DNA from: Octopus sinensis
Lineage: Eukaryota
DNA length: 64,000 nt
Assembly: GCF_006345805.1 (NCBI RefSeq)
Contig: NW_021833271.1
Location: 28,426-92,425 of the forward strand
Direction: 5' to 3'
The notes beneath the pieces were generated by a model. The model ran no database searches and had not been told where the DNA came from. It was given only the letters and a program-made list of their open reading frames with translations. Below, one piece after another: positions 3,121 to 60,462 of this stretch. The position numbers and the translations under genes are program-made. The stretch's first letter is position 1. Each line of letters begins with the position of its first letter.

Positions 3121-3368
3121 ATCCACCTGATATTACTGCACCAGATAATGTGACATTATTTGAGAATCAAGCATCCATTATAGACTGTAATGCAAAAGGA
3201 AACCCTACCCCAGAAGTGTGGTTGGAGAATGAAAATCGAAATTCCTTTCAAATTCAATATTAACTTTTAATCGTAAAAATATCAGTCGTGTTTTCTGCTC
3301 TGCCATTGCAAAGAGTGAAAAGAATGGAAATTTCCGAGATAGAAAGGAAATTAATATCCTGTTGAAAT
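3121..3368 (+). CDS. IgSF receptor exon A: Ig-like domain with a 1-nt frameshift in the A-run at 3232-3235
   Basis: Poly-T tract + TAG acceptor at 3120; GTATGT donor at 3369; phase 1 at both ends. Reads PPDITAPDNVTLFENQASIIDCNAKGNPTPEVWLENE and, after adding one A, KSKFLSNSILTFNRKNISRVFCSAIAKSEKNGNFRDRKEINILLK. Shows B-strand C, C-strand W and F-strand C. Confidence 0.85.
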
Positions 3369-3719
3369 GTATGTTAAATATAAATATTTGTTCCTCCTCC
3401 TCCTCCTCCTCCTACTACTACTACTACTACTACTGTTACTACTACTACTATCACTAATATCCTCACCATCATCAAATGTCTTTTACTTCTTTGTATAAAT
3501 TCTCAGATTGAGTGGCATATTGTGTCCTTGGGCAAAGCACATCACTTCACATTGCTCTAGTCTACTCAGCTGAAAATGACTACCAGCTAAGTGCTGGTGC
3601 AGCCCTCTCTCTCTTCAAGCAACACCTCCTTGATGATCTACTGGGTCAAGAGTGGGTACACTGAGAGGGCATTTATGTCTCCTTGTGATTGCATAAGTGT
3701 CTAAAATCATCTTCACTTG

Positions 3720-4046
3720 TGGGTCATCTTCACTTGTGAGCGACACGCATGTAAAAAACACCACTTGAGCATGGTCATTGCCAGTGGCACATAAAAAGCA
3801 CCATTTGAGGTGATCGATACCAGTATCGCCTGACTGGCCCTCATACTGGTGGCACATAAAAAGCACCCACTACACTATCAGAGTGGTTGGCATTAGGAAA
3901 GGCATCCAGCTGTAGAAACCATGCCAGATCAGATTGGAACCTGGTGCAGCCTTCTGGCTTGCCACTCCTCAGTCGAACCGTCCAATGCATGCCAGCATGG
4001 AAAGTGGACGTTAAACTATGATGATGATCATCATCATTATCATCAT
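3720..4046 (+). mobile_element. RTE LINE 3' UTR fragment / RTE-tailed SINE
   Basis: gtggcacataaaaagcaccca...gttggcattaggaaaggcatccagctgtagaaacc...ggaaagtggacgttaaactatgatgatgat matches 14020-14213. Confidence 0.75.
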
Positions 4047-6131
4047 TGTCTTATGCCTATTTTTCCATGCTGGCATGAGTTAGAAGGATTTGTTCCACCT
4101 CAGCCCTTGCCACTTGTCATAGTCCATCATCATCTGATATTCCTTACATCATCTCTCTCTGGTGTATATGATTTTTTTTATGCTAGGGGGTTGTGATAGG
4201 CTTTTCAGCTGAATGCCCTTCCTATCACCAATCATTCTGCAATGGAGTTCAGTCTTTTTGATCAGTAAAGTGGTTAATTATTTAAGGAAGGAGTGTAGTC
4301 ATGAAATCAATACTACTTCATCAGTTAAAAGTAAGGAAAAATAAAGTCAGCCTGTGTGGAACTGAAGAGGACAAAACTGATTAATATTAAGGTCGTAGTC
4401 ACTATAAAAGGTAGGTTTCACAATTTCTGGTAATATATCCTGAAAACCCACATAACCTAACTGAAACAGTATCCTAAAGACTACCTTTTCGCTTCAGAAG
4501 TAGAAAATATTTCAGCTTTTGAGCAATTACTGATTTTCTATAAAATTCAAGTAAGATCCACAAAGAATTACTGCTCCTACACCCAGGACAGATTTGCTCA
4601 GTGAAAGCCCCACTAATTGATAATGACTCAGTAACACATACCATCTTTCGCTCGTACATGTGCTTCTCTTCTCTCTGCTTCTTCTATTATTATTACTCCG
4701 ATCACTGCTCCTAGCTTTAAACAACCTCCATCCAAGTTCACCCAATACATCTATCTCTCCCATTCTTCTCGTCAATACTGTATTTCATTGACCACTATGC
4801 ATAATCAAACCTTCTTAGAGTTGAACAATGTGAAATTCCCTTCCCACCTATGACTTGCCTGTAGATATTGATGTGTACAACTGAACATAGGCTGTATCAG
4901 TCTTACCAGTCTTGGAGAGTTTGTGAAAGATAATGTCTGCAAATAATTTTTGTTGACTGATCTCTAAAAAAATCATTATTCTAACACTGACCCTGCTGTA
5001 TTCACTCTATTTACTTTAAGAATTATGTTAATGACATCCATTCTGTGCAATATTGTTGTTGAGCTTCAAAAGAACTCCCTCAGATTAAGAGCATGACCTG
5101 TAAATATGAACAAAAGAACTGAAAGATAATTTGGGTTTGTTGATCCTTGATTTTACTAAGGGATTTATTGTGACCAAACATCACATCAGTTTCTCCAGTT
5201 TAAATGAATATGGGTGTTTGTAATTTTTCTGGTCTCTGAAGTCCATATTTTGCTCTCTACAACCACCCTACTTCAAATGGTGTATTCTGTAAACATCTAC
5301 AACTGCCCAATTTCTAAATATTGATATCCTTTTTACTAGGGTTTTAAGTGGGCACATTTAATTTCTCCTGTAATATTTCAGTATCCTTATGCACTATTAA
5401 TGGATAGACAGGTGTCAAATTTGTTTTACAGAGACCTGTTTAATTGAAATATCTCTCCCTAGGATAGAAACTTGATAAATAAGACATTTGAACTCAAAAT
5501 TTGTCAAAACACAATTCAAAACCTAAAAATTTTGATTTTATATTCAATGCCACTGAAGCATTATCTCATTTTGAATTTGAATAGACTAATGCAGTTCACA
5601 TAGAAGATGTCTCAAAGCTAATGATGTACCCAACCTAACTCATTTATTATCCTTAACTGAAGGTAGCTCACTGAATTTTGAAATTAGAGAAGCTAAGTTT
5701 TCAATAAAACTTTTGATTACATCTCCTACCTAGAAATCATTATTTTCAGCAAAATGTTTGTTAAAAAAACTGGAAAATATGAGCTAACCTGGAAAGACAA
5801 AAATTTACTGAGCAAGGCAAACATTTTAAACCAAAACATATTTTAAGAAGAAATGAATGTCATCACAAATTGTCCTAATGACAGCAGCATCATAATCATT
5901 TCTGCTGTGAAAGGAAATGCAACTTCAATAATGTCAGAGAAGAATACACATTAATCACATCTTTAGGCATGCTTAAATTAAATGCAAAATAACTTCTTAT
6001 ACACATATATAATCTACAAACATATGATTACTCAAGATTCCGTCAAGATCAGTTGCCAGCTGTAGATACTCAGCATATTCTTTTATGAGTTGTTACCCAG
6101 CAAAATTTATTTCCCTTCTTACTGATAGAAG

Positions 6132-6345
6132 TGTCCCATTTTTCATGGGTGCTGTACATTTCAATGAACTAATAAAAGAGTTTGTTTTTTTTAGTTCATT
6201 TTACAGCACCCATGAAAAATGGGACATATTGATCTAGTTTTCAAGTCATCAACTTTAATGTGATTTGCTTGCTCACAATGATTGGTGGGGGGGGGGGCTC
6301 TTTTTTTGGTGAAGTTCTACTTTCGGAAACAAACTAGATCAATAT
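6132..6345. repeat. Two adjacent inverted repeats (hairpins)
   Basis: tgtcccatttttcatgggtgctgta (6132-6156) pairs perfectly with tacagcacccatgaaaaatgggaca (6202-6226), with an inner aatgaactaa/ttagttcatt pair. Next, atattgatctagttt (6226-6240) pairs with aaactagatcaatat (6331-6345). Confidence 0.85.
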
Positions 6346-8442
6346 TTTGAATAGTTATTGCAAAATATGTCACTAGTTAATATAACTTATAAAAATGCCT
6401 ATACAAGACTATTGAACTTCCAAATAAAATGTGAGATACACTTTATATTGCCAGTAATTAAGCAATTTAAATATCTATATTTCTGAAAATGTAGCAATAA
6501 AATGTGCATTTTGGCTCAGCTATGTTTTTGGGGAAACTCCAGTTTCTGAGTGGCCAGGGAGAGGTATTTACAGTAGGAAAATAAACATCATCCACTGGAC
6601 ACTACTGCAGTTTTGAGTCTCACTACTCTTATAGTGATAAGAAAAAATATTTACAATACACTCTGTTAAGGTGTTGGTAAATAAGCAGAGAAAGCATAGA
6701 GTCAGGAGATCCCTTCAGTTCTCTCTTGCTGAGGACATAACCTCGTCTTTAATGCTGGTTCCACAATAAAGTGCACCCAATACACTCTGTAAAGTAGCTG
6801 GTAAATGAACAGAGAAAGCATAGAGTCAAGAGGTGTATTTGGTCTTCTCTAGCCAAAGATATGACAACTTCTCTCGTGGTGGTACTACACTAAAATACAT
6901 TTAGTACGCTGTGTACAGGTTGGTCATAGGAAGCACATCTATCTATTGAAACATAGTCAAAACCTAGCCAAATGTGGCATAGTCTTCCAACTTGTCTATG
7001 AAAACAGCGGTCTCAGTAAGGTCCCATATGTGACTACCCTTCCTTGCCATCATGGAGAGTGGATATGAAGAAGGAGAAGGAAAAGGAGGTGATTTAAAGC
7101 ATCAAGAAAATGTGTCTATCCTATTGAAGTATTTTTTCAAATATAAGCAGTCATTTGGAGACCATATTTTTCTGCAATAAATAACCTGTATTCTTCTATA
7201 TGTATGCAATGAAATCCCCAATCACTGTTAGCTCCACTTTACAACAAACAGTCGCCTAGAAACATACAAAGATTCTGTATTAGTTATACAATCAAATCAA
7301 TACAACAAATTTCAAAGATGTCACATTCAGTCTTCAAGTTTGGATAAATCAAATATAATGCATTTATCAAATTTTTCAGTGTGGAAATGAAAAAACCCTA
7401 AATATCATTACAGAAGAGATTGAGAAACTTTGATTAGGGATGACAAGACAAAAGCATAATGTCTGATGTACAATTGAAAATCATAAGCATCTATGGATAA
7501 GGGCATCAAAAGTAAAGGTTCCATTCAAATCTAACCAAAAGATATACAACTGTTTATTTGGTTTTAAACCCATAACTTTGGATAGAGGGCTCTAATTAAA
7601 AATGATAGGAAGACAAAAAAAGCAAAGCTAACTGTTTAAATTTAAACAGTTCATTTAAAAAGTTCATCTCAGTACTACATACGTATTTACTTCAATAATT
7701 TATTTTATTCAATTTATTTATATTTTGTTCTCAGAATGAAAACTACATCAACTTTAACAACATAAAAACTTAATATTTGAATCTTTTGACTTAGTATTTT
7801 CAATTACTTTGGTTTCATTTGTCTGGCATCATACCACTTTCTTCCTATCATGCTATTACCATAAGTGGATACATTTAAACACTACATTGATATTGTGATG
7901 AAGAACGGATATATCCTTTTTCCCATGATCTACTGAAGAACGCTTCTAATTCCTCTTATTGAGAGGCATTTTTTTGTATGCTATGTGAAGAAATTTCATT
8001 GTGAAATGATTTTAATTTCTTATATCTGTATGGTTTGACAATTTTTATGAATATTATTAGTAGAAATTTCATGAATTGTTTGTTTACTCTACAACTCAGT
8101 AAACTATCTTCCTGGTGAATACAGTTATTTCTCAATGGACAATCTACCCATCCAGATACAAGTACTGCATGGAAGTACATATCACTGTTGCAACCTCCTG
8201 TAAATCTTAAAAACCTTATAAAGATTTCATTAGCCACAGGGCCAAGCTAAAATTGTCCCAAGATTGTGGTGGTTTAGATTGCTTTCTGTATTTTACTTTG
8301 ATATCCTGTATGAGAAACATGTTCAATGACAATCATAGAATCTGAATTTAAAATGTGTGTGAAACTGAAATTTTTAATTTTAATCCTATTTTCTAAATTG
8401 AAACTGTTCCTTGATTATTTTATTTTATTTTATTTTTTTAAG

Positions 8443-8694
8443 ATCCTCCTCAAGTAAACTTTAATATTTCAAAAAAGACAAATAAAATAATAATTAGTTG
8501 CACTGCATCTGGTGGAAATCCAGCAAATCATAAATATGAACTGAAGCAAAAATGGGGAAACACCACTAAGAATACTTATGATATAAAAGTATTATCTATA
8601 AACAATCCTTCCTTCAGTAATACTGGTACATGGGAGTGTCATGTAAGCAATGATGATTTTATTGTGATTAAGTCATCAAACTACAAAATTTCAG
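8443..8694 (+). CDS. IgSF receptor exon B: Ig-like domain, GC splice donor
   Basis: The T-rich acceptor ends AG at 8442. The frame is open: (Y)PPQVNFNISKKTNKIIISCTASGGNPANHKYELKQKWGNTTKNTYDIKVLSINNPSFSNTGTWECHVSNDDFIVIKSSNYKIS, with C..W..(N/D)xGxWxC. It ends CAG|GCAAGT in phase 1 and joins exons A and C in frame (LLK-Y-PP; KIS-V-RP). Confidence 0.9.
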
Positions 8695-8712
8695 GCAAGT
8701 ATTTTACAAAGC

Positions 8713-9998
8713 CAATAAGTAATGCCCCTGACCCGCTTGCAGTTGTTTGATCTAGCTGAAATTTTGCATGTGCAATTATTTATATCATTATAGATTAAGT
8801 GGCAAATTACAGCTCTGAACTAATTGTGGTTTCTGATTTACAGGTGTTTGAACTGTGTCAAGTGTGAAATGGAGCCTGTTGCGTGTCGAGCAGTGATCAC
8901 GTTTTTGTATTTGAAAGGACGCACACCACGGGAGACTTTTGATGAAATGAAAGTAACTTATGGTGATGATGCCCCATCATATGACCTTGTAAAACGCTGG
9001 TATCGTGAATTCAAACATGGTCGGAACTCTGTGGAAACAGCTCCCAGATCTGTTCGCCCCCCCTTCTGCCATTGATGAGGCATTTGTCCATCAAGTTGAG
9101 GCTGCCATTTTGGAAGATCGACGCATAACTATTTCCCAAATAGCCCATGAGGTCAAGATTAGTACCGGGTCTGTGAAAACTATCATTCATGATCATTTGC
9201 ATATGCAAAAGGTGTCTGCCAGATGGATTCCCAGGTTGCTCACGCCTTTCCAGAAGCAAGAACGCGTTGATTGCTCGAGGATGAATTTGGAGATGTGCCA
9301 AGAAGATGAGTCAAAATTTTTCAAAAGACTGATTACACAGGATGAAACCTGGGTTCATCACTATGATCCAGAGACCAAAGCCCAGTCAATGCAGTGGAAT
9401 CACCGTTACTCACCTCCTCCAAAGAAGGCAAGGGTGCAGCCCTCCGCTAGCAAAGTCATACTCACAACCTTCTGGGACCAGGACGGAGTAGTGATGCCAG
9501 ATTTCCTGGAAAATGGTACCACAATTACAGGAGCCTATTATGCTTCACTTTTGAGGAAATTAAGAGAAGCTATCAAAATCAAGAGGCGGGGCAAGATCAG
9601 CAAAGGTATCCTCCTTCTGCAGGACAACGCTCTGGTCCACAACTCGTGTGTCGCCAGATCAGAAGCACAGGCATGCGGCTATGAACTCCTCCCTAATCCC
9701 CCCTACTCTCCTGACCTTGCACCCTCTGATTTTCACCTCTTCCCAGCCATGAAGTTATTTTTGAAAGGAAAGCGTTTCCCAGATGATGCAGCCTTGATTT
9801 CTGAAGTCATGTCGTGGTTGGAGGACCAAGCTGGGGGTCTACTACAATAACGGTCTCCAGAGCTGCATCAAACAATGGGAGAAATGCATAACTCTGGGTG
9901 GTTCCTATGTAGAAAAAGACTAATAACTGTGCCAAGTTTCGTTGCTCTACTGCTATGGGAAGTGGGTCAGGGGCATTACTTATTGAACGCCCCTCGTA
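8713..9998 (+). mobile_element. Mariner (DD34D) transposon with frameshifted transposase
   Basis: Left TIR remnant caataagtaatgcccctgaccc (8713) vs right TIR gggtcaggggcattacttattgaacgcccctcg+TA (to 9998). Transposase from ATG 8869 (MEPVACRAVITFLYLKG...) with WIPRLL, TQDETW, LQDNA and YSPDLAPSDFHLF. Frameshifts near 9060 (C-run) and ~9840; stop near 9923. Confidence 0.95.
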
Positions 9999-11416: not shown

Positions 11417-11526
11417 TTGTTTTAATAAAGTGATTGTCATCAATATTTCCAGAAAAGAACTGAAAGTGTTTTTTCACATTAATTGGAAGCATATGAATTA
11501 AATTATAGACCAAGAGCATAAAATAT

Positions 11527-14213
11527 TTGTTGTTAGGGGTAGAAGACAGCTGGACGTTTCTAAGGGACAACCTGCTGAGAGCCACTGACCAGATCTGTGG
11601 CTGGTGCAAAGTCCCCTCTCGACCTAGAATAATGTGGTGGTGGAACAATATTGTAGACAGGGCTATTAGAGAAAAGAGACAGGCTTGGAAGGTCTGGAAA
11701 AATGGGGGTAGCAGGGAATTGTATCAGACTGCCAAAAGAGAAGCTAGGAGACAGGTTTATTTAGCCAGAGGGGAAGCAGATAAGAAAAAATTTGCCAATG
11801 TTCTGCGCCGTGAGGACCAAAGACTGGAGGTGTTTCGTGTTGCAAGACAGTGTGTGAGAGAGAATCGTGATGTGGTAGGAGAGAAGTGTGTTCGCATGGA
11901 AGATGGTTCACTTGCGCTAAATGAGGATGCAAAGAGAGAGGTTTGGAGATGCCACTATGAAAGGTTGCTGAATGAAGAAAATGAATGGGATAAAGAGAGT
12001 CTGCCGAATGTTGACCCAACAGAGGGACCAGCTATACGAGTTAATAGTTCCGTGGTAGCTAAGGCAATTAGAAGCATGAAGACAGGGAAAGCCCCAGGCC
12101 CATCAGGAATCACTGCAGAGATGCTCAAAATGTCTGGTAGTGTCGGCTATAGCCTAGTCACCCGTATAGTTAATCAGGTGATACACAACGGGGTCATACC
12201 CAATGACTGGTGTAGCAGTATAATAGTCAACTGCTACAAAAGTAAAGGTGATGCCCTAGATACAAATAACTACAGAGGTATCAAGCTGTTGGACCAGGTG
12301 ATGAAGGTTACGGAGAGGGTCATAGCCCAACTAATTAGAGAGAGAGTTAGTTTAGATGAGATGCAGTTTGGGTTTGTGCCAGGGAAAAGTACTACTGATG
12401 CTATATTCCTGGTAAGGCAGCTGCAGGAGAAATACCTAGCCAAAGATTAGCCCCTGTACCTGGCTTTTGTTGACATGGAGAAAGCCTTCGACAGGGTCCC
12501 CCGATCCCTTATCTGGTGGGCAATGAGGAAACTAGGGATAGATGAATGGTTAGTGAGAGCTGTGCGGGCCATGTATAGGGACGCCGCTAGTAGGGTGAGG
12601 GTTGGAAATGAGTACAGTGAAGAATTCCGGGTAGAGGTAGGAGTCTACCAAGGCTCAGTACTCAGCCCCCTCCTATTTATCATAGTCCTCCATCCAGGCA
12701 ATAACGGAGGAATTCAAGACAGGATGCCCTTGGGAGCTCCTCTATGCTGATGACCTTGCTCTAATTGCTGAGTCGCTATCAGAACTGGAGGAGAAGTTTC
12801 AGGTGTGGAAACAAGGATTAGAATCGAAGGGCCTCAGAGTCAATCTAGCTAAAACCAAAGTCGTAATCAGTAGGAAGGTAGACAAATCACAAACACCTTC
12901 AGGTAGATGGCCCTGCTCGATCTGTAGAAAAGGTGTAGGTAGAAACTCTATAAGATGCACCAAGTGTAAGCTATGGACACATAAGAGATGCAGCAATGTC
13001 AAAGGAAGGCTAACTAGGAAGATGGTTTTTGTATGTGGCAGATGCTCAGGAATAATAAACACTGAAAATGCTCTGAGACCAACTTCCGTCACTTTCCAGG
13101 GAGAAAAACTAGAAATAGTTGATAGTTTCCGTTACCTAGGTGACCAAGTCAGCAGCGGGGGTGGGTGTGCTGAAAGTGTAACTGCTAGAGTAAGAATAGC
13201 TTGGGCAAAGTTCAGAGAGCTCTTACCTCTGCTGGTGACAAAAGGCCTCTCGCACAGAGTGAAAGGCAGACTGTATGATGCGTGTGTACGAACAGCCATG
13301 CTACATGGCAGTGAAACATGGGCCGTGACTGCTGAGGATATGCGTAAGCTCGCTAGAAATGAAGCCAGTATGCTCCGATGGATGTGTAATGCCGGTACTC
13401 ACACTCGGCAGAGTGTAAGTACCTTGCGAGAAAAGCTGGACCTAAGAAGCATCAGTTGTGGTGTGCAAGAGAGACGTTTGCGCTGGTATGGTCATGTGGC
13501 GAGAATGGATGAAGATAGTTTGTGTGAAAAAGTGCCACACCCTAGCGGTTGAGGGAACCTGTGGAAGAGGCAGACCCAGGAAAACCTGGGACGAGGTGGT
13601 GAAGCACGACCTTCGAACTTTAGGTCTCACTGAGGAAATGACTAGAGACCGAGACCTCTGGAAGTGTGCTGTGCGTGAGAAGACCCGGCAGGACAAGTGA
13701 GTCCATAACCCGTGGCCTTCTACATGGGATGGAGCCAGCCTACGTATGCATACCTTCCCTTCTTGGGACACAAAACTCTACTTGTGAAGACGTGTTGAGG
13801 CAAGTGAGGATCAGAATCGAAATCGATCAATGGAAATCGATCAATGGAAATTGCAGATGTGTTACCAGTGCCGGTGGCATGTAAGAGAACTTTCCGTTTC
13901 GCGACCGTTACCAGCACCGCCCCGTTTCGTGTCCATTGCCAGCCTTGCCTGGCCCTCGTGCCGGTGGCACATAAAAGCACCATCCGTTCGTGGCCGTTTG
14001 CCAGCTCTGTCTGGCACCTGTGCAGGTGGCACGTAAAAAGCACCCACTACACTCACGGAGTGGTTGGCGTTAGGAAGGGCATCCAGCCGTAGAAACACTG
14101 CCAGATTTGACTGGGCCTGATGAAGCCTTCTGGCTTCACAGACCCCAGTAGAACCGTCCAACCCATGCTAGCATGGAAAACGGACGCTAAACGATGATGA
14201 TGATGATGATGAT
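11527..14213 (+). mobile_element. RTE-clade LINE, 5'-truncated; RT with one stop and frameshifts; PHD finger insert; (GAT)n tail
   Basis: KAPGPSG, NYRGIKLL, QFGFVPGKSTTDAIF, FVDMEKAFDRVP, GVYQGSVLSPLLF, ELLYADDL (~12735-12760), FRYLG, GSETW and RLRWYGHV. The 3' UTR ends in gatgatgat at 14213. Confidence 0.97.
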
Positions 14214-16146: not shown

Positions 16147-16455
16147 TGAGACCTATGTTCAGTTCAGGATCAAATTGTCCAAAAAAGAGAAATGTTTCCA
16201 ATGGAGAAACTGTAATTTTGAAACAGTGTTTTTATTCGCATCCAAAATCTGATGTAAAATGGCAGAAAAATGAGGAATCAATTGACTCAAACAAATATTT
16301 AATAACTGATTATTTACAAGATGAGTTTCCTTTCAAAGGAAGCTGTACTAGTTTGAAGATAGAAGACACCAAAGATGATGTTATAGATACTTATACCTTA
16401 ACAGTGGAAAACTCAGAAGGAAAAGAAACTGTTGTTTTTACTTTGAGATATAAGA
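16147..16455 (+). CDS. IgSF receptor exon C: membrane-proximal Ig-like (I-set-like) domain lacking the F-strand Cys
   Basis: Poly-T + CAG acceptor at 16146; A|GTAAGT donor at 16456; phase 1-1. Reads RPMFSSGSNCPKKRNVSNGETVILKQCFYSHPKSDVKWQKNEESIDSNKY...SLKIEDTKDDVIDTYTLTVENSEGKETVVFTLRYK. Confidence 0.9.
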
Positions 16456-23292: not shown

Positions 23293-23394
23293 AAAAGCAA
23301 GAAATACCTATGGAAATAATTATTGGTTGCAATGTCGGAATTGTATTATTATTAATAATAATGGGTCTTACTTATATATTCTACAAAAGAAGAG
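23293..23394 (+). CDS. IgSF receptor exon D: transmembrane helix with basic stop-transfer residues
   Basis: cttttcAG acceptor at 23292; G|GTTTGT donor at 23395; phase 1-1. Reads (K)KQEIPMEIIIGCNVGIVLLLIIMGLTYIFYKRR and is in frame with exon C. Confidence 0.88.
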
Positions 23395-27900: not shown

Positions 27901-30274
27901 TACTCTTTTACTCTTTTACTCTTTTACTTGTTTCAGCCATCCGGCTGAGGCCATGCTGGGGCACCGCCCTTGTTGCTACCCTCTCTAAGTCCAGTTTGCC
28001 GTGGCTGGCCACTGATCTAAGAGAGAGTTTGTAGCTGCTGCCCTTAGGTTACCTTCGTACCTTGCAGTGGGTTCATCTGGGATCCCGGAAAGCAGCTTGT
28101 CTAGATGTTTTTTGAAAATGTCCACATCCGCATCATGTAGATTCGTTCCATGACCTTACTTATGTGTGACGTCAGGGAGACTGGCCTGTAGTTTTTGGCC
28201 TCTGCTCTACTCCCTCCTTTGTGGATAGGGCATATGGTGCCTTCTTTTAGCGCCCTGGGCAGTTTACCGTTAGCCAAGGAACCACTGAAGAGCTTCTTCA
28301 GTGGTCCCGCTAGGGCATGCCTGCATGTTTGTAGGAGGACTGCTGGGAATCCATCTGGTCCAGCAGCTGAGTTTATTCTCATTTCTTCTATGGCAGATAT
28401 TACATCCCTCTCTGTTATTTCTATGTGGTCGATGGTTGTTGTTTGGTTTTGGAGTGTTGTGGCATCAAAGAAAACTTCTGGGTTTGTGATTTGCATGTGC
28501 CCCAGAGGGGATGTGAACACACTTTTATACTGTTCCTTTAGTATTTCACTTATCCCTTGGGGGTCCTCAGTTAGAGAGCCCTTTTTATCAAAGAGTGGGC
28601 CAATCTTGCAGTGTACCGAGGTGCTTTCTTTCGCAAATTTAAAGAAGGCTTTAGGGTTTGTTTTAATATTCTCTATGGCCCTGGCTTCTCTCTCTGCCCT
28701 CTCCTTCTCATAGGAAAGTTTGAGTGCAGTTTCCGTTTCAAAAAGTTTCAGGTGGAGACCCTCATTGTTTCTCTGCCGTGCATTCAGTTGCTTCGAGAGC
28801 TTAGCTCTTCGCCTCATAAGTATTTTCCTGTCTCTGGGAATAACGTTCCTATGCCCGCTGGCTTTTTTCTCCGGGACAAACTTATGGCATATGTTCTGTA
28901 TTGTTGTCATGAAATGTTGGAAATGTGTGTTGGTGTCTTGTGTGGTGATGAAGTCACTCCAGTCATGTTTTCGGATCTCTTCGTTTATCTTCTTCCAGTT
29001 TGCCTTATGGAAGTTTAGACTGGATAGACCTGTGGTATTTTCTAATGGCTGCGTCTCAACTAACTCTCTCATACCATATATCATTACCTCTACTAAGTTG
29101 TGATCTGAGAGAATTGTTGGTGTTACCATTATGTTGTGGATGAGCATCAGGTTGCTTGTGAAACAGAGGTCCAAGACATTCTCACCTCTTGTTGGCCGAA
29201 GCACTGCTTGTTCCATGAAAAACTTGCGTGTGAGAGCCAACAAGGACTCTGTCTGTCTCTGTTCAAGTGATGTCATTCCAGGGAGAAGATGGCCATCTGG
29301 CCATTTGACTTTCGGAAGGTTAAAATCTCCCAGCAGTAGAATGGTGTTACCTTGGTCCAGTTTGTCCAGGACTTCTTCTATTCTTCTGAGGCTATCTTCA
29401 AACACTCCTTCATGACTAGGGGTGTCTGGTGGCCGATATGTGACACATATTACTATTTTCGGTTGTTTCATGTGTACTATCAGTGTGTCACAGACTGAGT
29501 TTGAGTGTGTCAACAGTACTATGGGTGTGACATCTTCACGGACGTACAGGGCAACCCCACCATGAGTTCTTTCCTTCCTGTCTGACCGAAAAACAGTATA
29601 CTTTGGTACGTGTATTTCTGCATCTGCTATACTGCTTGACAGGTGCGTTTCAGTCAGCGCTATGCATATTGCATGGTTGCTTGTGCTTAAGTCCCTAAGG
29701 TAAGGAATTTTACTCATATTAGTGGGTTTCACCAGACCTCTGACATTCAGCAGAAGCACTGGTGAGATATTTGGGGTGTCAATAAAGGCTGACGGTGTGG
29801 CACCTGGGCTGGTGTCAGCGGTGGCCACCCTGGGTCCCTTGATTGTGGTGGTCTTGAGTGCTGTTGTGAGTGCCCCTGGCTCTGAAGACGATGTATCCAG
29901 GCCAGTTGTCCCTCAATTTTCTCTGCTATTTCCACAAAATTTCTTTGTTCTGCTGCTGCCGTCTGCATTTCCTCTGCAAATGTGCGCCTTCTCCTTGTTG
30001 GGGCATTACGCACTATGTCTGCATATTTCTGGGGCAGCTTGTATTTGTTCTGGTTTTGGTTTCGGTCTTGGTTTTGGTTAAGGCATTTTGGTCGAATGGG
30101 TTTGATGCAATTTCCATAGGGCCTGGGATGAGCGAACCTGCATCCTTCTCCTGTTTCTCCATGCCAGCAGGTTCCATTCCGGAAGAATTTGCATGTTATC
30201 TGGGTTTTCTTGTCCCCAGTTCCTCTCTGTTTTCTCTTCCTCCGTTGGACGGTTGTCCACTGGTTCCTTTCTGC
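27901..30274 (-). mobile_element. CR1/L2-group LINE: CCCH-finger ORF1 remnant, intact APE endonuclease, RT internally deleted, (AAAAGAGT)n tail
   Basis: ORF 28101-29828 has LLLNVRGL, LTETHL, RSDR..GGVALYV, YRPP, GDFNLP, PTRGENVLDL, SDHNLV, GPDGFP and NYRPVSLTSHISKVMER. It then jumps (~28140) to the C-terminal DIFK..LDKLLSGIPDEP...RAAATNSLLDQ. Upstream is CKFFRNGTCWHGETGEGCRFAH. Confidence 0.92.
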
Positions 30275-38300: not shown

Positions 38301-39399
38301 CACTTTTTTATTTTATTTTATTTTATTTTATTTTATTTTATCTTATTTTATAATTATTTTGTGAATTTAATAGGACTTCATCAGCAAAAGGTAAGTTTTG
38401 TTTTTAAGAAATTTGCATGAGGAAAAGATGAATTTAGTTAGACAGACAAATTATTAAGAGACCATGTTGCAAAAAAGTAAGATATTAAGTGGTCAACCAT
38501 CAAGAACAATTCGTTCTACATAAATGCAGCCATAGGTACTCATAATCAGTTCAGGTAAAGGTTTTGGAGAAAAGTTCCTAACATAAAAGCAGAGCCTAGA
38601 ATGAAAGGGCCTAAAGGTTACTTTGGCAAAAATGAAATTTTTAGCTTGCAGAAAATAAAAAAAAACACTATTCCAAACTGGATGTAGCCACACTCATTAT
38701 GTAGAAAGGGAGCCAGTAAACACTCTATACTATATAACCAATGTAAACAATAAGTACACAAAAAGTACAAGACAGGCTTATAGAGAAAGGGATTTCATTC
38801 ATAAAAGCACTCCCAAGAAATAAAGGAAATTTCTCAAGTTTGATAATAGTTGGTATCTTCCATAACTTAACTGTCTTAATCAGCATTAGAAATGAGTGTT
38901 GTGAAAGCATAATAGGTGGAGTAAGGATAGGTTATAAAAGTCCAGGGAGCAACTGCCTTTGTTGACAACAGAGAGGTTCTCTCTGTGGATGCTAAATGTC
39001 CGGAAAGAAATGCATCAGGTATATTCCAGTTGTATAGACAACATGCATAACATCATCATCATCGTTGTCGTTTAACATCCACTTTCCATGCTGGCAAGGG
39101 TAGGACAGTTTGATAGGAGCTGGCGAGGCAGAATCCTGCACCAGACTTCTTTTACTGTTTGGGCAGGATTTTTACAGCTGGATGCCCTTCCTAACACCAA
39201 CCACTCACCAGAGTGGGCTTAGTGATTTTTACATGGCACAAGCACAGGCAAGGTCAGTTTTGGAAAGGTTTGGATGCCCTTAGAAATGCTAACCATTTTT
39301 CGGTGTAGACTGGATGCTTTTTAAGTGGCCAAGAGGACAGGATTTGGAAGTGGAAGGTAAGCATAGTGTATGAAGTGGAAATGCAAGGAAGAGACATAA

Positions 39400-47525: not shown

Positions 47526-48351
47526 TCCCCACCTACTCTGTCTCCCGTGCAACCTGGATAAATTTTCATTCCAAACATCAGTTATACGCATTATATGAAC
47601 TTCATGCATGAAAAAACACATGACCTCATAAACGTATGCTGCGCTCCTCTCACAGATATATATGGGTCTCACACATATCCATGACATTACAAGTTATATA
47701 CAAACTTATGAACCCATAACACCATAAGTATCACATGAATTATGTGAAAGATATGTGAAACCTCACAATAATGAGTACACACCCAAACAGACATACTACA
47801 GATCGAGAGTTTGCACCCGCTGACGGCTGCAGCAAAATTCAATTTTGGACTTTCTTCTATCGAAGGCATTCTAACAAAAATGCTTCCGTATAAATGGTGA
47901 AAATATTGTCAGTTTTTGTTTCACTTTTAACACGTAATACTGAAATAGTGGAGAAGATATGATATTGCTATGGGCTCGCCTTAAACAAGAAGTCGAACGT
48001 TTTTTTGATCATGAAAGTACATGGACCCTAAGTAAGGCATGTGTGAAGTTTGAATGAAATTGGTTGTGTAGTTCTCAAGTTTTAGGGGAACACACAGACA
48101 GACACATTCTTTTCTTAAAGGTACTGAAGATAATTATGTGACTATTTCAGATGAAGCTCTCAGTAAGTATAATTAACACCAAATAACAAATAATTTTGTA
48201 TTGGTTTCAATGTTTGGCACAAGGCCAGCAATTTTTTGGGAGGGAGAAATCAATTTCATCAACCCCATTGCTCAATTTGTACTTACTTTTTGTGTGTGTG
48301 TGTGTGTGTGTATATATGTATATGTATGTGTATATATATATATATATATAT

Positions 48352-49873: not shown

Positions 49874-50126
49874 TTAATTTTAGATACCATGCACTACACA
49901 CTGAAATAATAAGTTTTGCATTTTCCATTTCTTTTCTTAAAGGTACTGAAAATAATTATGCAACTATTCCAGATGAAGCTCTCAGTAAGTATAATTAACA
50001 CCAAATGACAAATAATTTTGCATTGGTTTCAATGTTTGGCACAAGGCCAGCAATTTTTTAGGAGGTAGAAATCAATTTCATCAACCCCATTGCTCAATCT
50101 GTACTTACTTTATGTGTATGTGTGTA

Positions 50127-50302: not shown

Positions 50303-50482
50303 GAAATAGGAAATCCGTTGGAAAAAACAAAAACAGAACAGAGGCGGAGCAAAACAAATCGAACAAGGCTCCTAAGAGCCCATGGCCAAACTGTTTATCA
50401 ATGTATGTTGAAAACGGGTGGTGGGTGCGTTGAAGATTTTAACGGGTCAGGCAGCGGTCATTCCGGTGTGTGAGGGCATGGG

Positions 50483-52243
50483 GTGCCTATGGGTAGTTCG
50501 GATAGTGCGCAGATAGCCGATTTGGTCGGAATATATATTCTCTACGAATTGTCTGACCAATTCCCGGAGATCGCGGGCGGCCTGTATCGTGACGATTGTC
50601 TGTTTTACCTGCAAAACACCACGAACAGAATAGTGCAGAAAACTAAGAGCAGGTTAGCTAGGTTTTTTAATAGAATGGGCATGAATATAGTTTTTGATAA
50701 TGAACTCACCAAGGCTAATTTCCTAGACGTTACACTTAACCTTAATAGCGACTCATACTGCCCTTACCATAAGCCTTCTACTAATTTGAAGTATGTCAGT
50801 GTCTTCTCCAATCATGCCAAAACCGTAACAGACAATTTGGTTAAAAACATCTCTCTAAGATTGTCTGGCTTGTCCGCTAGTGCCGATATTTTTATGCAGA
50901 AAGCGGAATTTTATAACGCCGCACTATCCAAGGCCGGTTATAGGCAGAAGGTAATTTATATTGATCCGGCCCTTCCGATGCCATCATTCGGTCATCAGGA
51001 TAGGGCCGTCTATAATAACATAAACAATTTAAGTAGTGACGGGAGCGCGACGGGTGCTGGGGCAGTCGCTCTCGCATTTAATTTAGCGAACAAGGATAAT
51101 TATCGGTCCGGGGGATCTCACACTAACCCAAAACCCGTTATTCATCCGAGAATCACCCACCCGAATGCGAGAGCTGGCGTCCCGACCCACCACATAAATA
51201 GGAATAAGCATATATGGTTTGTAATTCCCTTTGGTAAGCAGATTAGAACTAACCTCCCCCTCATGTTTCGACAAGCCATCGCCAATAACTTCCCCAGAAA
51301 TTCCAAATATTACTCCACGGTTAACTCGCATAAAGTTAGGATAGCTTTCTCCAACACTAAAAACCTCGCCTAGATAATCGCCTCCCATAATAATAGGCTG
51401 CTTACTAAGACCCTATCACCTTTTTCCGGAGGCACAGCTTCTTCCGCTCCCGGTTTAATGCTCAGTAGGAATAATAATAGTAGCAATAATGATATGAGAG
51501 CCAGTACAGTGACTCATAATCTCAGCTCCAACCAGGGATTATATGCTAGGGGTATAGTTATAAATAAGGGTGTTGTCATTGACGGTAGCAATGGCAGTAG
51601 TGAGGTGAGCGCAGCTCGGCTCGTTAGGGTAGAGAGTCCCAATAGCAACTCCAGCATCGTTTCCGGCAATAGCAGCACCACGGGCACTAGCAATGACAGC
51701 ACTCTGATTGATAGTGTAGAATCAGGGGTTATTCCGTTAGTTAACAGTGACGTAGTGGAAAATAAAGTAGTAAGCGGCTGCAGTTCTCGCAACAAATATA
51801 GTGACAGTAACACAGTTCTAATTTCAGAAACTAATCCTAACAGAATAAGGTTCACGTCGGTGAACTCCAAGATCAGAAGCGCCGTCTACCAATGCAAGGT
51901 TTACACGGACTCAGATGTCTACGCTTATGTCGGGGCCTCATCGTCAAGATTGGCCTTACGAATCTCCAACCATTACGCAACTTTTCGAGACGTGAATAAA
52001 CGCCAGACCACGGGACTTAGCAAGCTAATATGGCGATTGAAGAATACGAACTCAAGCTACAGGCTGGAATGGTCAATTTTGTCGGTGGCCCTCCCATTTG
52101 ACAGGGGCAGAAGGAAGTGCAACCTTTGTGTCTCCGAACTCTTCCATATATTGTTCGCCAGAGACCGGATGGTAAACGGACTTTTACAGTCGGCTTTTCG
52201 ATGCCCCCATTGGCGGCGTTATACTTATCTTGCTTATAAATAA
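50483..52243 (+). pseudogene. Penelope RT C-terminal half + GIY-YIG endonuclease; one in-frame TAG at 51371-51373
   Basis: GVPMGSSDSAQIADL, GGLYRDDCL, NFLDVTL and YHKP, then AVYQC...YAYVGASS..RISNH...CNLCVSE...RCPH. ORFs 50483-51373 and 51458-52243 share one frame. Confidence 0.92.
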
Positions 52244-54611: not shown

Positions 54612-54643
<32 letters not shown>

Positions 54644-54741: not shown

Positions 54742-54775
<34 letters not shown>

Positions 54776-56169
54776 CACACACACACATATACATATATAT
54801 ATACACACACACACGTTCGTGCTGTCTACTTGACCTCCACTCTCATATCTTCTTCCATTCTGTATTTATAGTGATGATACTTCAGAATCAGGGATGCTGG
54901 TGTGTAAGGTTGTAAGAGTTTGGGAGAAAAGGAGGTGAATACAAACCATGGAATGAAACAGGTCAAATGAACATAGGAGTTTTAATAAATCATGAACAGG
55001 GAAAGGATTTACGTATAGAAGGGGACACAGTAAGAAAAAGGAATAGATGCTGACTGGAAATAGTACAAAGGAAAGGAAGTGGCAACTCACAGTACAGAGA
55101 TGGCAATATGTATGGTATAAATGTATGGTGTATTCTATTTTTGTCTCTTACAGCAGCAGCATAGCACTTTCGACAGGAGAATGATGGAGGGCTCATTATA
55201 GGGTCATGAGTTGTGGGGCTGGCAGTTGTGATTAGTGGGGAAATTAAGAAAGGGATACCAATTTGAAGGGTGGAGGATCATTTGTGGTAGGAACCTGGAA
55301 TGGATGTCTGTTGGAAGTGGCAGCAGATGTAAGATGTGGTGAGTAGTGGAAAAAGGGAAAATCAATAACAACAGTGGAGGTTAGCTCATTGATGGTAAGG
55401 ATAAAGGAGAAATGTCAATAGGAGGTGAACCATACTTAGGAGATGTTTTTAATGGCAGGAAGAGGAAATGTGAAGAAGAGAAAGATACTGTTTAGAAGAG
55501 CTGATTTAGTTCGGTTTCTTGGGGTAGCATGTGTGAAAACATTGTTGCATATAAAATATACACTATATAATAATTTGCTTGTTTGTTCACCTGTTATACT
55601 TTAGTTTGTTAGAGAGGTGGAAATGGAATGAGTGAGAGGTTCAGTAAAAGTGAGAGAGAGAGGGAGAAATGTGAGTAGAGAAGCAAGAAGAAGAGAGGAG
55701 TATAATAATACACTAAGGTCAAATGCATCACGTAGTTAGTTGAAGGGGGAGGCAAAGAGCAAGACACAAATACGATGAGAGGAAAGTGGGAGAGAGAGAG
55801 AAGTGTTAATGACATACTGTAGGGTGGAAAGAGAAAGAGGGAAATGTTAAAGACATGAAGATGGGAATTACATGGTTAAAATGTTTGTTGAAGAGGTAGA
55901 GAGAAAGAGAGAAATATAAGGTGCTTAGCAGAAGGAAATTTCAAAATCATATACTATTTTGCAACTGGAAGTGAAATCACTTAGCAAAATACAAATAACA
56001 ATCATCCTTTCTTTCTTAAATAGCTTTGCTTAATCTCTTTCGTTCTGTGGAATTTCCACAGATCTCACTAGTATTTTATTTTTTTTAGTTACTTTTTGTA
56101 CAATATCAAAATATTAAAACTATCCTCTCCAAACAATAAATGTGCACATCTTTCTATAATTTTTTGAAG

Positions 56170-56229
56170 CTAATGAAGAGCAATATGCTGAAGCTAGTGG
56201 GCCCAGTTATTTAGAATTGAAACCAGCAG
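56170..56229 (+). CDS. IgSF receptor cytoplasmic exon F1 (60 nt, tyrosine motifs YAEA and YLEL)
   Basis: tttttgaAG acceptor, CAG|GTAAGT donor, phase 1-1. Reads NEEQYAEASGPSYLELKPA. Paralogous copy at 58617. Confidence 0.8.
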
Positions 56230-56449
56230 GTAAGTATAAACAATATTGTTAGTACACAGCATGATCTTAGAAATTATCTTAAACATTAACAGAAAGCTAA
56301 CAGTCATGAAATGTATCATTCTCTAACTTTTATCTTTTAATATGTGTGTATGAGTGTGTTTGAGTCTGTCTCATTAGCATTTATTATTGTAGTATCAACA
56401 CAATACTAACATAACGCTATTTATTGTTTTTATTTCTAATTTTTTAAAG

Positions 56450-56491
56450 ACATGAAGATTTCTTACGTTAATGTTTCAAGGAAACCTGATG
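56450..56491 (+). CDS. IgSF receptor cytoplasmic exon G1 (42 nt, ISYVNV)
   Basis: T-rich tract + AAG acceptor, G|GTAAGT donor, phase 1-1. Reads (D)MKISYVNVSRKPD. Confidence 0.8.
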
Positions 56492-56593
56492 GTAAGTATA
56501 TAAGCAATCGAATAATAAAATTTCATTCATTAGAGCAAGAGTTAGCAAAATTTTGGTTCACTCTTTCTTTGAGTAGTAGAGGCAGCTTAATGC

Positions 56594-56951
56594 ATGTCTT
56601 TCATTTGTTCCAGTCATTGGACTGCAGCCATGCTAAGGCACCACTTTCAAGGGTTCAGTCCAACAAATCCACCCGAGTACTTATTATTTTTAAGCCTTTT
56701 ACTTATTCTATTGGTTTCTTTTGCTAAACTGCTAAGTTATGTGGATGTGAACAAACCAACACAATTGTCAAGTGGTGATGGGAATCAAACGCAAAGGCAC
56801 ACACACTCCCTTATATATATACCAAATCCATTCACAAGATTTTGGTCAGCCCAGGATTATAGCAGAATACACTCGCCCAATGTGCCTCATCATATGACGA
56901 AACCCAGACCCATGTGTTTGGAAATTAAACTTCTTACCTCACAGCCACACC
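56594..56951 (-). mobile_element. tRNA-derived SINE with a 3' tail shared with the CR1/L2-group LINE
   Basis: The head (rc) ggtgtggctgtgaggtaagaagttt matches 26958. The tail tttgttccagtcattggactgcagccatgctaaggcacc resembles the LINE tail ttgtttcagccatccggctgaggccatgctggggcaccgcc (27928-27968). It is absent from the duplicate cassette. Confidence 0.75.
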
Positions 56952-57947
56952 TAAAAACCTTTCAAAATATTAAAATTCCATTGCATATACGATAAACTTC
57001 TTACAGATATTCCTATTTAACTCTGATATTTTACCTTTTTATCAATCCTTACCCTTAATGATGTAGTTCATAAAAATTTATTTTGTAAGCGTTAATTTGT
57101 ACAAAAAAATCCAAATAATTAAGTAATAATGAATTCAGTAGATATTTGCCAAGGCATGAGACACAATGAATGGGAATAAATTTGCAATAGTAAATGTGAT
57201 TAACTGTTCTCCTCCAGTATCCAAAATCACTCCTGTTTATTTATAACTCTAGCAAGAAATTTATCTTAGAAAAACCCTTATTGCTCTAAACATATTTGTG
57301 AATAGCTTCCCTTAATGTTAATATCAGAACCAAATATTGAATTGATGGAAATAGTACATACTGTACTAAATATTGACAATTAAATTAGTGTTAGTACATT
57401 CTGAGATTATATCCTAGAGAAGTACACTTTGTACAATCAGCCTCTCAATAAGTTCTACTTTTACAAAATCATTAGCACACTCAGCATCCAAACTCTATCT
57501 ACTAATCCCTACAGAACACTGAAGAGATGGAGGATATTGTGGCCTCTTGGCAGAAACGGCCGTAAGGAACTGATATTTTATGTTTTACTTGTATATATTT
57601 GTGTAGCACACAGTCTTTGAATGTGTATGTATTTTTATAATACTCCCTTTTGTTTTGGAATAGATAGACTTAATAGAATGCCTACTGGCTGATCTATGTA
57701 ATTTTTGTATCCCCTCCATTTTCTTTTTGCCGGATATATATATATCATTCGCCATGATAGATCGCGAGCCACTAAACCTTTTTTATTTTCTCTCCCTCTT
57801 TTTATATTCGGTCCCTGTTTTTTCTGTGTTCCTTTCTGTCAGAGAGCATATGCTCGAAACGTAAAAGACTTTCTCACTTCCTGAGCATTAAACATCTGTT
57901 TGTTGTTTACACACCCATCTTTGTCTTTTGTTTTTTTTTGTAAATTC

Positions 57948-58004
<57 letters not shown>

Positions 58005-58137
58005 GAGTGGAAAATTTACTGGTAAGTGTGTTAAATAATAAGGCAATAAAAGAGAATGACTCTCCCCAGACACCACAAAATATGCTTCAACACACAAACT
58101 CATATAAAGAATTTTGCAAACCAAATACAAAAATGAA

Positions 58138-58470
58138 GAATAGAAATGGCTTTTCTGATAATTTTTCCACTTCAATAATTAGATGTTTATAAGTTTACAA
58201 TCAGGTAACACCTGAATTCAGTTAGTCAACTAAAGCATGATTTAGGGCAGTTGTTGAGGCTATTGCTTTTGCTTTCCTTTTTCTTGAAGGTTTCCACAAC
58301 AACAGTCCAGGAAGGAACTACAAAAAGAAAAGGAAAGCAGAAGCGATGGCCTCAGCAACTGCCCTCACCCATGCTTTGGGTAACTATTTGAATTCAAGAG
58401 TTACCTTTTTCTAAACTTATAAACACCTAATTATTAAAGTGGAAAATTATCAGAAAAGCCATTTCTATTC
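58138..58470. mobile_element. Foldback/MITE-like inverted repeat (second, truncated copy at 59867-60148)
   Basis: gaatagaaatggcttttctgataattttt...gctttccttttt is mirrored by aaaaggaaagc...aaattatcagaaaagccatttctattc. Confidence 0.85.
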
Positions 58471-58616
58471 AGTTTTTCAGATATCTAATACTGTACCAAG
58501 GGCTTTCTATTTCTTTTTCTACTATCTACATATAGCTGCTACTTTCTGTGTATCATCAAAATATTTAAATCACACCCTCCAAACAATAAATATGCCTTTC
58601 ATTTTATTTCTTGATG

Positions 58617-58676
58617 CTGTGGAAGAACAATGTGCTGAGGTTAGCGAGCCGAAATATTTAGAAATGGGACAACGAA
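58617..58676 (+). CDS. IgSF receptor cytoplasmic exon F2 (duplicate of F1; acceptor altered)
   Basis: VEEQCAEVSEPKYLEMGQR with A|GTAAGT donor. The position equivalent to the acceptor reads gATG instead of gAAG. An in-frame AG exists at 58624-58625. Confidence 0.6.
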
Positions 58677-58910
58677 GTAAGTACAATCAATATTGCATGA
58701 TCTTAGAACCTATCTTTAAAATAAACAGACAGTGAACTATTACGAAATATGTCACTCTCTAACTTTTGTCTATTAATATGCATGTATGTATGTGTGAGTG
58801 TGTTTGAGTCTATCTCATTAGTATTTATTATGGTAGAATCAGTACACAGCTATCTTAATTTAAATATTATTTATAGCCATGCTATTTGTTCTTTTTTTCA
58901 TTTCTTAAAG

Positions 58911-58952
58911 ACACGGATGGTACTTACGTTAACGTTTCAAAGAAACCTGCTG
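58911..58952 (+). CDS. IgSF receptor cytoplasmic exon G2 (42 nt, YVNV)
   Basis: ctttttttcatttcttaaAG acceptor, G|GTAAGT donor, phase 1-1. Reads TDGTYVNVSKKPA. Confidence 0.78.
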
Positions 58953-60436
58953 GTAAGTATATAAGCAATTTATTAACAAAAAATTACATTCATTGGAGCA
59001 AGATTAGCAAATAGTTTGGCTCATTCTTTCTTTGGGTAGAATATGCAGCTTAATATATATGTATGATTGAAATTAAAACTTTGAAGGTGTTAAAATTTCA
59101 TTGCATATGCAAAGAACTTCTTGCAAACATTCATATGTAACTTATATTTTACACCTTTATTTATCTTACCTTTATTAATGCAGTTCATATGCATATATTT
59201 TTAAAGTTTTATTTAAACAAATAACCCAAATTGGTATACAACTAATATTGAATTCAGTAGATACTTGCTTAGACATGAGACACAAAAAATGGAACAGATT
59301 TCCAAAGGTAAATGGGATCAGCTTTTCCCCTTCAGTATCCAAAATCACTCCTGCTTATGGATAACTCTAACAAGAATGTAATCTCAGAAAAACCCTTATT
59401 GCTCTAAACATATTTGTGAATGGCTTCTCTTAATGGTAATATCACCACCAAATATTGAAGTGAGGGAAAAAGTACAAACTGTACTAAATATTGACAGAAT
59501 TAAATTTACTGTTAGTACATTCTGAGATTATATCCCAGTGAAGTAAATTTTGTACATTCAGCCTCTCAATAAGTACTACTTTTACATAACCATTAGCATT
59601 TTTCTTGTAGAATAGAATTTTGGGTGCCACTTTACTAAGGAACCCTCTTTCCAAAGTCTAAGTTTGAAATGTCATATTAACCAAAATTACTCTTTGTTTA
59701 CTCTTGTTCATACCAAATAGATTTATTAGCCAATACTTTTCTTTTATGCAATATGTAAATAAGAGGATGAAGAACATATTCAGTACATGGACTCTGACTG
59801 GATTTAAGTATTTTTTGTTTCTAAATACATATATGTGGATATATATAATTATATTTGAAGAAAAAAGAATAGAAATGGCTTTTCTGATCATTTTTCCACT
59901 TCAATAATTAGATGTTTATAAGTTTACAAACAGGTAACTCCTGAATTCAGTTAGTCAAACAAGACATGGGTGAGGGCAGTTGTTGAGGCCATTGCTTCTG
60001 CCTTCCTTTTTTCTTGAAGGTCCTTCCACAGCAACAGGCCAGTAAAGAACTTTAGAAAAGGAAAGCAGAAGCGATGGCCTCAGCAACTGCCCTCACCCAT
60101 GCCTTGGTTGACTATCTGAATTCAAGAGTTACCTTTTTCTAAACTTATCCACATCAGATCTTGTTTGTTTCATTCATAAAATCTGCATCTCTTAAAAGGA
60201 AGTCAAATATCTGAAAATCGGTTATATTGATGTAGTTTACATGCTTATTCCTGTGAAGCCATGTACTTGTGGAGAAAAAATTTGATGAAAACTTTAAAAA
60301 AAACTGTGTATTTTTAGCCAATAGTGAGACAGAAATTTTCTGTGATGTAGCATTCTCAACTTAGTGGTGTCAATTTTAATGTTTTACCCTGTGAAATTTA
60401 TAGTTTAGCATCTGTGAAATGACCTGTTCATTGTAG

Positions 60437-60462
60437 GTTTCGAAATAAACAGAAATACCTGA
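60437..60462 (+). CDS. Possible terminal coding exon of the IgSF receptor
   Basis: ctgttcattgtAG acceptor. A phase-1 join gives (G)FEINRNT* followed by AT-rich sequence. There is no independent support. Confidence 0.3.

Follow-up and report, generated by a model that had tools for sequence, protein, structure and literature searches.

On balance, a 64,000-nucleotide stretch of the Octopus sinensis genome (positions 28426-92425 of contig C9742, in a genome of 2.72 Gb; hereafter the window) is best read as carrying the 3' half of a gene that belongs to a clustered coleoid family of immunoglobulin (Ig)-domain receptors, with kinase-less tails of duplicated tyrosine exons that are predicted to dock SH2-domain proteins and with ligands that are likely variable and non-self. 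Such proteins would be variable, non-catalytic recognition receptors, likely with an immune role and possibly arranged as a paired system. The exon chain, the size of the family, its genomic cluster, the duplication of a tail cassette, the variation in domain number, the excess amino acid change in the two outermost domains (D0 and D1) and one differing tail were all observed directly. The window contains the last three Ig exons of the gene, a transmembrane exon and eight tail exons, the latter comprising two microexons of 17-19 nt and six tyrosine exons. The last base of the window is the end of the contig. The features, together with the names used for them in an initial annotation made from the letters of the window, are as follows.

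3121..3368, + strand: Ig exon D5 (exon A of the initial annotation), Ig-like domain 6 of 8; one base short in an A-run
8443..8694, + strand: Ig exon D6 (exon B); phase 1-1, GC donor
16147..16455, + strand: Ig exon D7, I-set, membrane-proximal; phase 1-1
23293..23394, + strand: transmembrane exon; helix without a charged residue
36109..36127, + strand: juxtamembrane microexon 1, 19 nt, phase 1-2; kept in two cluster paralogues
38374..38390, + strand: juxtamembrane microexon 2, 17 nt, phase 2-1; spliced in models P0006 and P0072
48121..48162, + strand: tail exon C1, 42 nt, YVTI
49943..49984, + strand: tail exon C2, 42 nt, YATI; C1 and C2 together give YxxI-x10-YxxI
56170..56229, + strand: cassette 1 exon A, 60 nt, YAEA and YLEL
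56450..56491, + strand: cassette 1 exon B, 42 nt, ISYVNV
58614..58676 (start about 58617), + strand: cassette 2 exon A, YLEM; acceptor TG, with an in-frame AG at 58626
58911..58952, + strand: cassette 2 exon B, 42 nt, YVNV; final exon ahead of the contig end
60437..60462, + strand: terminal exon of the initial annotation, unsupported; the position is intronic in the colinear copy on C5 of the assembly

The three Ig exons and the transmembrane exon lie where the initial annotation had placed them, with Pfam Ig_3/I-set matches for the Ig exons (E values of 9e-5, 1e-4 and 6e-9 for D5, D6 and D7, the curated cut-off being passed by D7 alone). Its tyrosine exons starting at 56170 and 56450 are likewise confirmed, as is its statement that the window has no catalytic domain. 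A single open frame runs along the chain from exon B to 58952 when the TG-acceptor exon, which has TG where paralogues show an AG acceptor, is omitted. The exon inventory of the initial annotation does not stand. Eight tail exons are present rather than four, including those at 48121-48162 and 49943-49984, and the two microexons of phase 1-2 and 2-1 between the transmembrane exon and the tail depart from the uniform 1-1 phase that had been proposed. The exon order of the window was also found in database models of Octopus relatives, and because the chain keeps one open frame in this same order it is not a chance arrangement. Exon D7 is 100% identical to an Octopus sinensis database model and has relatives in O. 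vulgaris and O. bimaculoides; the relatives in all three species are titled 'uncharacterized' or 'Ig-like'.

The gene starts upstream of the window, where tblastn located two further Ig exons on C9742, one of them with indels like those of exon D5, and it ends past the contig. For the terminal (stop) exon of the family the genome contains 12 matches, of which none lies on C9742; the exon at 60437..60462, taken by the initial annotation as the gene end, is therefore unsupported and the gene is truncated by the contig end. The colinear C5 copies continue with a third cassette about 4 kb and the stop exon about 10 kb beyond the point at which C9742 ends, and no kinase precedes that stop exon, which disposes of the downstream kinase that the initial annotation had named as a refuting case. 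Database models use the terminal exon at C5:115641323 and its paralogues in two reading frames; the phase of the preceding exon decides whether the end has 3 residues or is longer.

The frameshift reported earlier in exon A is present and consists of one A absent from an A-run of D5, relative to the otherwise nearly identical contig C10661. This base is present in nine of 11 aligned copies and is absent from the window and from the copy at C5:115.57 Mb. When the window was compared with C10661 at four loci (13 kb), 19 of 20 gaps were bases absent from the window, a profile typical of an unpolished long-read contig, and the D5 frameshift is likely an assembly error. At C5:115.5-115.8 Mb, two genes in inverted orientation share about 98% identity with the window across introns; the window copy represents an allele of either gene or a further recent paralogue. 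The gene pair itself forms a large inverted duplication, 98% identical and centered near 115.66 Mb, that is either real or a product of mis-joined haplotypes.

The family has at least 12 copies in the genome, seven of them in tandem on C5, which answers the paralogue count and clustering check proposed in the initial annotation. For exon D7, 12 of 23 candidates were scored as matches, with seven at C5:38.7-39.95 Mb, two at C5:115.6-115.7 Mb and three on small contigs; the corresponding counts were 12 of 23 for D6, 11 of 11 for D5, 13 of 13 for the transmembrane exon, 19 of 24 for D1 and 16 of 23 for D0. On C5, the seven genes occupy 38.6-40.0 Mb and follow one another head to tail, all on the minus strand. 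In O. bimaculoides, four loci have consecutive accession numbers on one chromosome, which suggests that the same gene cluster exists in that species. Nine loci are at least 98% identical to the first cassette of the window and resolve, over 2649 clean columns, into 8 distinct sequences in four groups. As this exceeds the supply of two diploid loci, the subfamily of the window has expanded recently; some of the small contigs carrying subfamily copies may be alleles.

Full-length relatives consist of a signal peptide, eight Ig-like domains (D0-D7), a transmembrane helix and a tail. Models of different members contain 4, 6 or 8 Ig-like domains, in agreement with the lack of D5 matches for two cluster genes. 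Assignment to the immunoglobulin superfamily (IgSF) follows from several sequence features: Pfam Ig_3/I-set matches above cut-off in full-length members, a Cys-Trp-Cys core kept in the D0 and D1 alignments with both cysteines invariant (11 of 11 D0 rows and 11 of 11 D1 rows), and matches in the atlas searched that are small molluscan Ig/V-set clusters. Pfam scans of eight full-length members gave no kinase, scans of full-length members gave no FN3 domain, and the D7 exon splices straight to the transmembrane exon. At 13 transmembrane loci, the 12 in-frame translations have a helix without a charged residue. In one gene of the cluster the transmembrane exon is present twice, the extra copy being decayed (C5:39296855-39298192). 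Elsewhere on C5, three distant D1-like exons (31-37%) lie at 92.28-92.41 Mb, and the short D0/D1-type proteins P0084 and P0126 may be part of this second cluster. At C7:88897256-88897906 (+), locus L125 is an intronless frame of 216 amino acids with a signal peptide, D0 and D1 and no transmembrane segment; it sits within a 1.85 kb near-perfect palindrome and has a broken twin on C11115. L125 may have arisen by retroposition, in which case it could code for a secreted form, or it is an artefact of assembly.

When 1.84 billion representatives were searched with a profile, 23 matches fell below 1e-30. Among the 20 that were looked up, relatives of full or nearly full length belonged to Argonauta hians and Sepia pharaonis, followed by a tier of proteins from bivalves and abalone, under automatic names. 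In a tree of the D4-D7 region the octopod and Sepia rows formed a clade (Shimodaira-Hasegawa-like approximate likelihood ratio test, SH-aLRT, 99) among molluscan multi-Ig proteins and apart from nephrin-/Kirre-type rows (SH-aLRT 96), and a 30-row tree agreed, both being quick trees without bootstrap. A clade with the nephrin-type rows was rejected by the approximately unbiased (AU) test on 18 rows of the D4-D7 region (p-AU 0.0097), where the nephrin label rests on the best PDB match of P0167 to SYG-2 and, for P0123 and P0160, solely on grouping with P0167. The other refuting case of the initial annotation, a conserved nephrin orthologue, is thus answered by the same rejection. A longer, Sepia-like decapod relative, P0066 (1214 amino acids), has repeated stalk pairs, FN3 and a tail without tyrosine repeats.

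The two outermost domains, D0 and D1, carry an excess of amino acid change. Codon-based maximum-likelihood estimates of omega (dN/dS) over all copies used were 1.87 for D0 (p 1e-4), 1.43 for D1 (p 0.04) and 0.62 for D7 (p 0.03), with non-significant values of 1.21, 1.18 and 1.34 for D2, D5 and D6; the codon sets omitted 5 of 16 D0 rows (two intronless, three partial), 8 of 19 for D1, 1 of 10 for D2, 4 of 11 for D5 (three frameshifted, one duplicate), 2 of 12 for D6 and 3 of 12 for D7. Within the recent subfamily (5-6 sequences) omega was 3.7 for D0 (p 5e-4), 3.1 for D1 (p 0.006) and 7.5 for D6 (p 0.005), and 1.2 and 0.67 for D2 and D7. In this subfamily D1 had 39 extra amino acid states against 2 synonymous ones. 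The variation of D1 lies in three short stretches. As a control without codon models, divergence at codon positions 1+2 was compared with that of the flanking intron, giving 0.124 vs 0.037 for D0, 0.087 vs 0.056 for D1, 0.065 vs 0.026 for D6 and 0.047 vs 0.041 for D7; positions 1+2 exceeded the flanking intron in 14 of 15 pairs for D0 and 15 of 15 for D1. The description in the initial annotation of a fast-evolving, multi-copy IgSF receptor of the cephalopod lineage, with a modular tyrosine tail, is borne out. An unlikely alternative is that the expansion is relaxed and partly pseudogenic, with one working receptor accompanied by decaying duplicates and with diversity arising from gene conversion and assembly redundancy. 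Such an expansion would account for the frameshifts in several copies, a dead acceptor common to four cassette copies, stalk-domain omega near 1 and the 98% identity of the window to both C5 copies across introns. However, the frameshifts are private to copies and deletion-biased, omega for D0 and D1 is well above 1 with change above intron divergence, O. bimaculoides retains orthologues of the cluster genes that have many isoforms, and 8 distinct sequences among nine near-identical tail loci imply at least four loci in a diploid.

The tails are built by duplication, within genes, of a 400-base cassette that contains a 60-nt exon A and a 42-nt exon B, each of phase 1-1. All 40 cassette matches scored, among 69 candidates, were positive, and copy number per gene ranges from 2 to 8: each of the two genes at C5:115 Mb has three A exons, and each of two fully read cluster tails has eight A-like exons. 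Across the A-B junction the tyrosines lie 12 residues apart, as Yxx[L/M]-x8-Yx[N/S]x, with V, I or D at +3 of the second tyrosine. Both tyrosines occur in 23 of 25 distinct units in a junction census, a count that shows the spacing and is not an unbiased conservation rate, as the pattern used favors Tyr. YxxM is a PI3K-p85-type site and YxN a Grb2-type site, and the cassette spacing resembles that of an ITAM (immunoreceptor tyrosine-based activation motif). Sepia relatives carry tyrosine repeats of their own.

Annotated isoforms differ from the longest form only in the tail in 7 of 7 cases for LOC106874069, 13 of 13 for LOC106869178, 2 of 4 for LOC106879981 and 2 of 2 for LOC115229375, which belongs to the window's own subfamily; what varies is the last exon or tail units of 14 or 20 residues. 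Isoform models of this sort generally rest on RNA-seq junctions, and exons of 17-19 nt are seldom predicted otherwise; transcript support for the gene models is limited to this kind of evidence. Rich alternative splicing would also be expected of a neural or epithelial cell-recognition code, in which an adhesion family of nephrin layout has expanded like the cephalopod protocadherins and the tail acts as an Nck/Grb2/PI3K scaffold. The V-C2-...-I layout, like that of nephrin and SYG-2, and the nephrin-/Kirre-type proteins among the weaker profile matches fit this idea as well. We nevertheless judge it improbable, as the nephrin-type clade was rejected, FN3 is absent, and the excess amino acid change between recent copies is atypical of wiring receptors, in which such an excess is unusual. 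In addition, and as weaker evidence, the family gene ids had no match in three supplement files of an octopus brain atlas (PMC9712504).

One gene of the cluster, at C5:38.62-38.87 Mb, has another tail, with repeated YAKV exons and a last exon carrying YAEL and TIYADL, which resemble immunoreceptor tyrosine-based inhibitory and switch motifs (ITIM and ITSM). This end exon gave one match among three candidates, at C5:38.62 Mb, and Argonauta P0057 has the same tail type; both tails contain TxYxx[L/I] together with an upstream YxxL that fails the -2 rule. The D6 and D7 exons of the window are 93-94% identical to those of this ITIM-type gene, compared with 82-91% for five cassette-tailed cluster genes. 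Downstream of it, at C5:38.495-38.499 Mb, lie a window-type cassette and a stop exon, an arrangement reflecting either nesting or mis-ordering; the gene at 38.97 Mb is without a cassette and stop exon within the stretch read. The tails also bear on a further, very unlikely explanation, that the family serves gamete or reproductive-tract recognition under sexual selection. The outer domains are positively selected, as this would predict, and the intronless 5'-end copies, if true retrocopies, imply germline transcripts. Germline transcription by itself is common, however, and tyrosine-motif tails with an ITIM/ITSM-like member are a better match to immune signalling.

Under the favored reading of a variable recognition receptor, a ligand would bind D0/D1, which are projected outward by 2-6 stalk domains, and the clustered tails would be phosphorylated by a Src-family kinase. 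Each A+B cassette would then present two tyrosines as an SH2 docking pair, a PI3K-p85-type YxxM and a Grb2-type YxN, these being general SH2 preferences, and signal strength would be set by cassette number and exon skipping. The single gene with the YAEL...TIYADL tail would recruit an SHP-type phosphatase and act as an inhibitory partner. We infer each signalling step, and the immune role itself, from the features described above.

Several results weigh against this reading. The exon junctions rest on database gene models, and a search for spliced Logan proteins of the tail returned annotation-derived models only (6 of 34 candidates). Model P0013 agrees with one cluster gene in D0 and D2 but with another in the transmembrane exon, and thus appears to join neighboring genes, and several family copies contain frameshifts. 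Gene conversion can inflate omega values above 1, the pairs are non-independent and the sets small, and flank divergence was taken from the first BLAST match and is biased low. In 10 of 15 pairs D7 diverges more than its flank, and D6 is also high, so that the gradient along the ectodomain is not clean. The strict ITAM, Yxx[L/I]-x6-9-Yxx[L/I], occurs neither in the window tail nor in 12 cephalopod family tails; the cassette spacer is 8 residues, but M/L and V/I/D at the +3 positions leave the strict rule unsatisfied. The window tail contains one relaxed ITAM (spacer 10) and a single ITIM consensus, ISYVNV, that doubles as a YxN site. By the strict pattern [ILVS]xYxx[ILV], each of the two 'inhibitory' tails has no ITIM and one site like the ITSM, whose pattern is TxYxx[VI], and a tree test gave no significant support for an exchange of tails between the ITIM-type gene and the subfamily of the window (AU p 0.167).

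A more specific version, which we consider rather doubtful, is a paired complex similar to those of NK and myeloid cells or of allorecognition systems, with one ancestral inhibitory receptor and many activating receptors bearing hypervariable V-like tips, signals set by cassette copy number and splicing, and a retroposed, secreted two-domain decoy. If true, it would provide the first molecular handle on self/non-self discrimination in octopus. The coleoid family is real and apparently undescribed: no description of it was found in the literature and six of its gene ids returned no paper, most subscription journals being outside the coverage. New features are the growth of the tail by two-exon cassette duplication, isoforms that vary almost only in tail exons, outer-domain dN/dS near 3, and one cluster gene with an Argonauta-like tail containing two ITIM/ITSM-like motifs. 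Cephalopod immune recognition is described as poorly understood in the available text of one source (PMC13230822), and the available portion of a 2026 review of immune diversification cites fibrinogen-related proteins (FREPs) for molluscs, and for cephalopods it lists no variable receptor family (PMC13428168). With this family, candidates with names and map positions become available, and they bear three independent signs of a recognition arms race: genes turn over in tandem, the outer domains are under positive selection and the tails diverge. The cassette tail is a natural experiment on the growth of signalling modules through duplicated exons and on their adjustment by splicing. A skin cue stops octopus suckers from gripping the animal's own skin (Nesher 2014, as cited in the available text of PMC9339708); a link between the family and this cue is speculation.

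Other features of the window include a tandem repeat at 573-2000, with a 98-bp unit, 14.6 copies and 96% matches, and intronic open frames at 8824-9847, 11509-13697, 28104-29912 and 50474-52240, which we take to resemble a mariner-type transposase, two LINE (long interspersed nuclear element) reverse transcriptases and a Penelope-like element.

Among known systems, the best non-cephalopod profile matches are molluscan multi-Ig proteins of scallop, abalone, clam and mussel, named nephrin-like, syg-2-like, CEACAM5-like or hemicentin-like, names that are automatic and not functions proven by test. They have the same run of stalk domains and tyrosine tails, but identity is 20-29%, FN3 is kept in several and no two-exon cassette tail was seen in them. 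The oyster receptor CgIgR, as far as its available description extends, is likewise a mollusc multi-Ig transmembrane receptor with a tyrosine-motif tail and no kinase, and signals through an ITAM and Syk in hemocytes; it differs in having five Ig domains and one classical ITAM, the comparison being one of layout (PMC6994640). Hydractinia Alr genes, in the accessible account, resemble the octopus family in being clustered, divergent IgSF genes with pseudogenes, alternative splicing and ITAM- or ITIM-bearing tails, and differ in having an FN3-like region and few Ig domains, with allorecognition proven for Alr1/2 (PMC9546547). A further defining property of Alr proteins is homophilic binding that is allele-specific and governs fusion or rejection. 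No sequence link between the Alr and octopus families was found, and membership was rejected, there being no FN3-like spacer between D7 and the transmembrane exon.

A receptor tyrosine kinase was rejected, as the colinear C5 copies reach the stop exon after the third cassette and Pfam scans of eight full-length members gave no kinase. Nephrin, SYG-2 and Sns are similar in having eight Ig-like domains beginning V-C2, a single transmembrane helix and a multi-tyrosine tail, whereas the octopus family is without FN3, multi-copy and fast-evolving; a nephrin/SYG-2 orthologue was rejected on the AU result, the missing membrane-proximal FN3 and the presence of at least 12 copies in place of a single-copy gene. 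In the vertebrate Siglec/CD22, CEACAM, SIRP and LILR receptors, as here, each Ig domain has its own phase-1 exon, the genes form tandem clusters, the N-terminus evolves fast, the stalk varies in length, and inhibitory- and activating-type tails both occur. The likeness to Siglec, CEACAM, SLAM and Alr proposed in the initial annotation holds for layout and fails for the defining features of those families. Siglecs have an essential F-strand arginine in an N-terminal V-set domain, and membership was rejected as no conserved Arg stands beside the F-strand Cys in the D0 or D1 alignments. CEACAM and SLAM have an N-terminal V domain without the canonical disulfide, and membership was rejected as octopus D0 and D1 keep both cysteines and the Cys-Trp-Cys core. 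The charged transmembrane residue by which activating paired receptors engage an adaptor is absent from the 12 in-frame transmembrane translations. Atlas feature matches are CD22-like (0.96) and the best PDB match is CEA (E 1.5e-5). The layout shared with Siglec/CD22, CEACAM, SIRP and LILR is thus an analogy and not membership, and unlike in vertebrate paired receptors, the activating-type motifs lie in the octopus receptor's own repeated tail exons.

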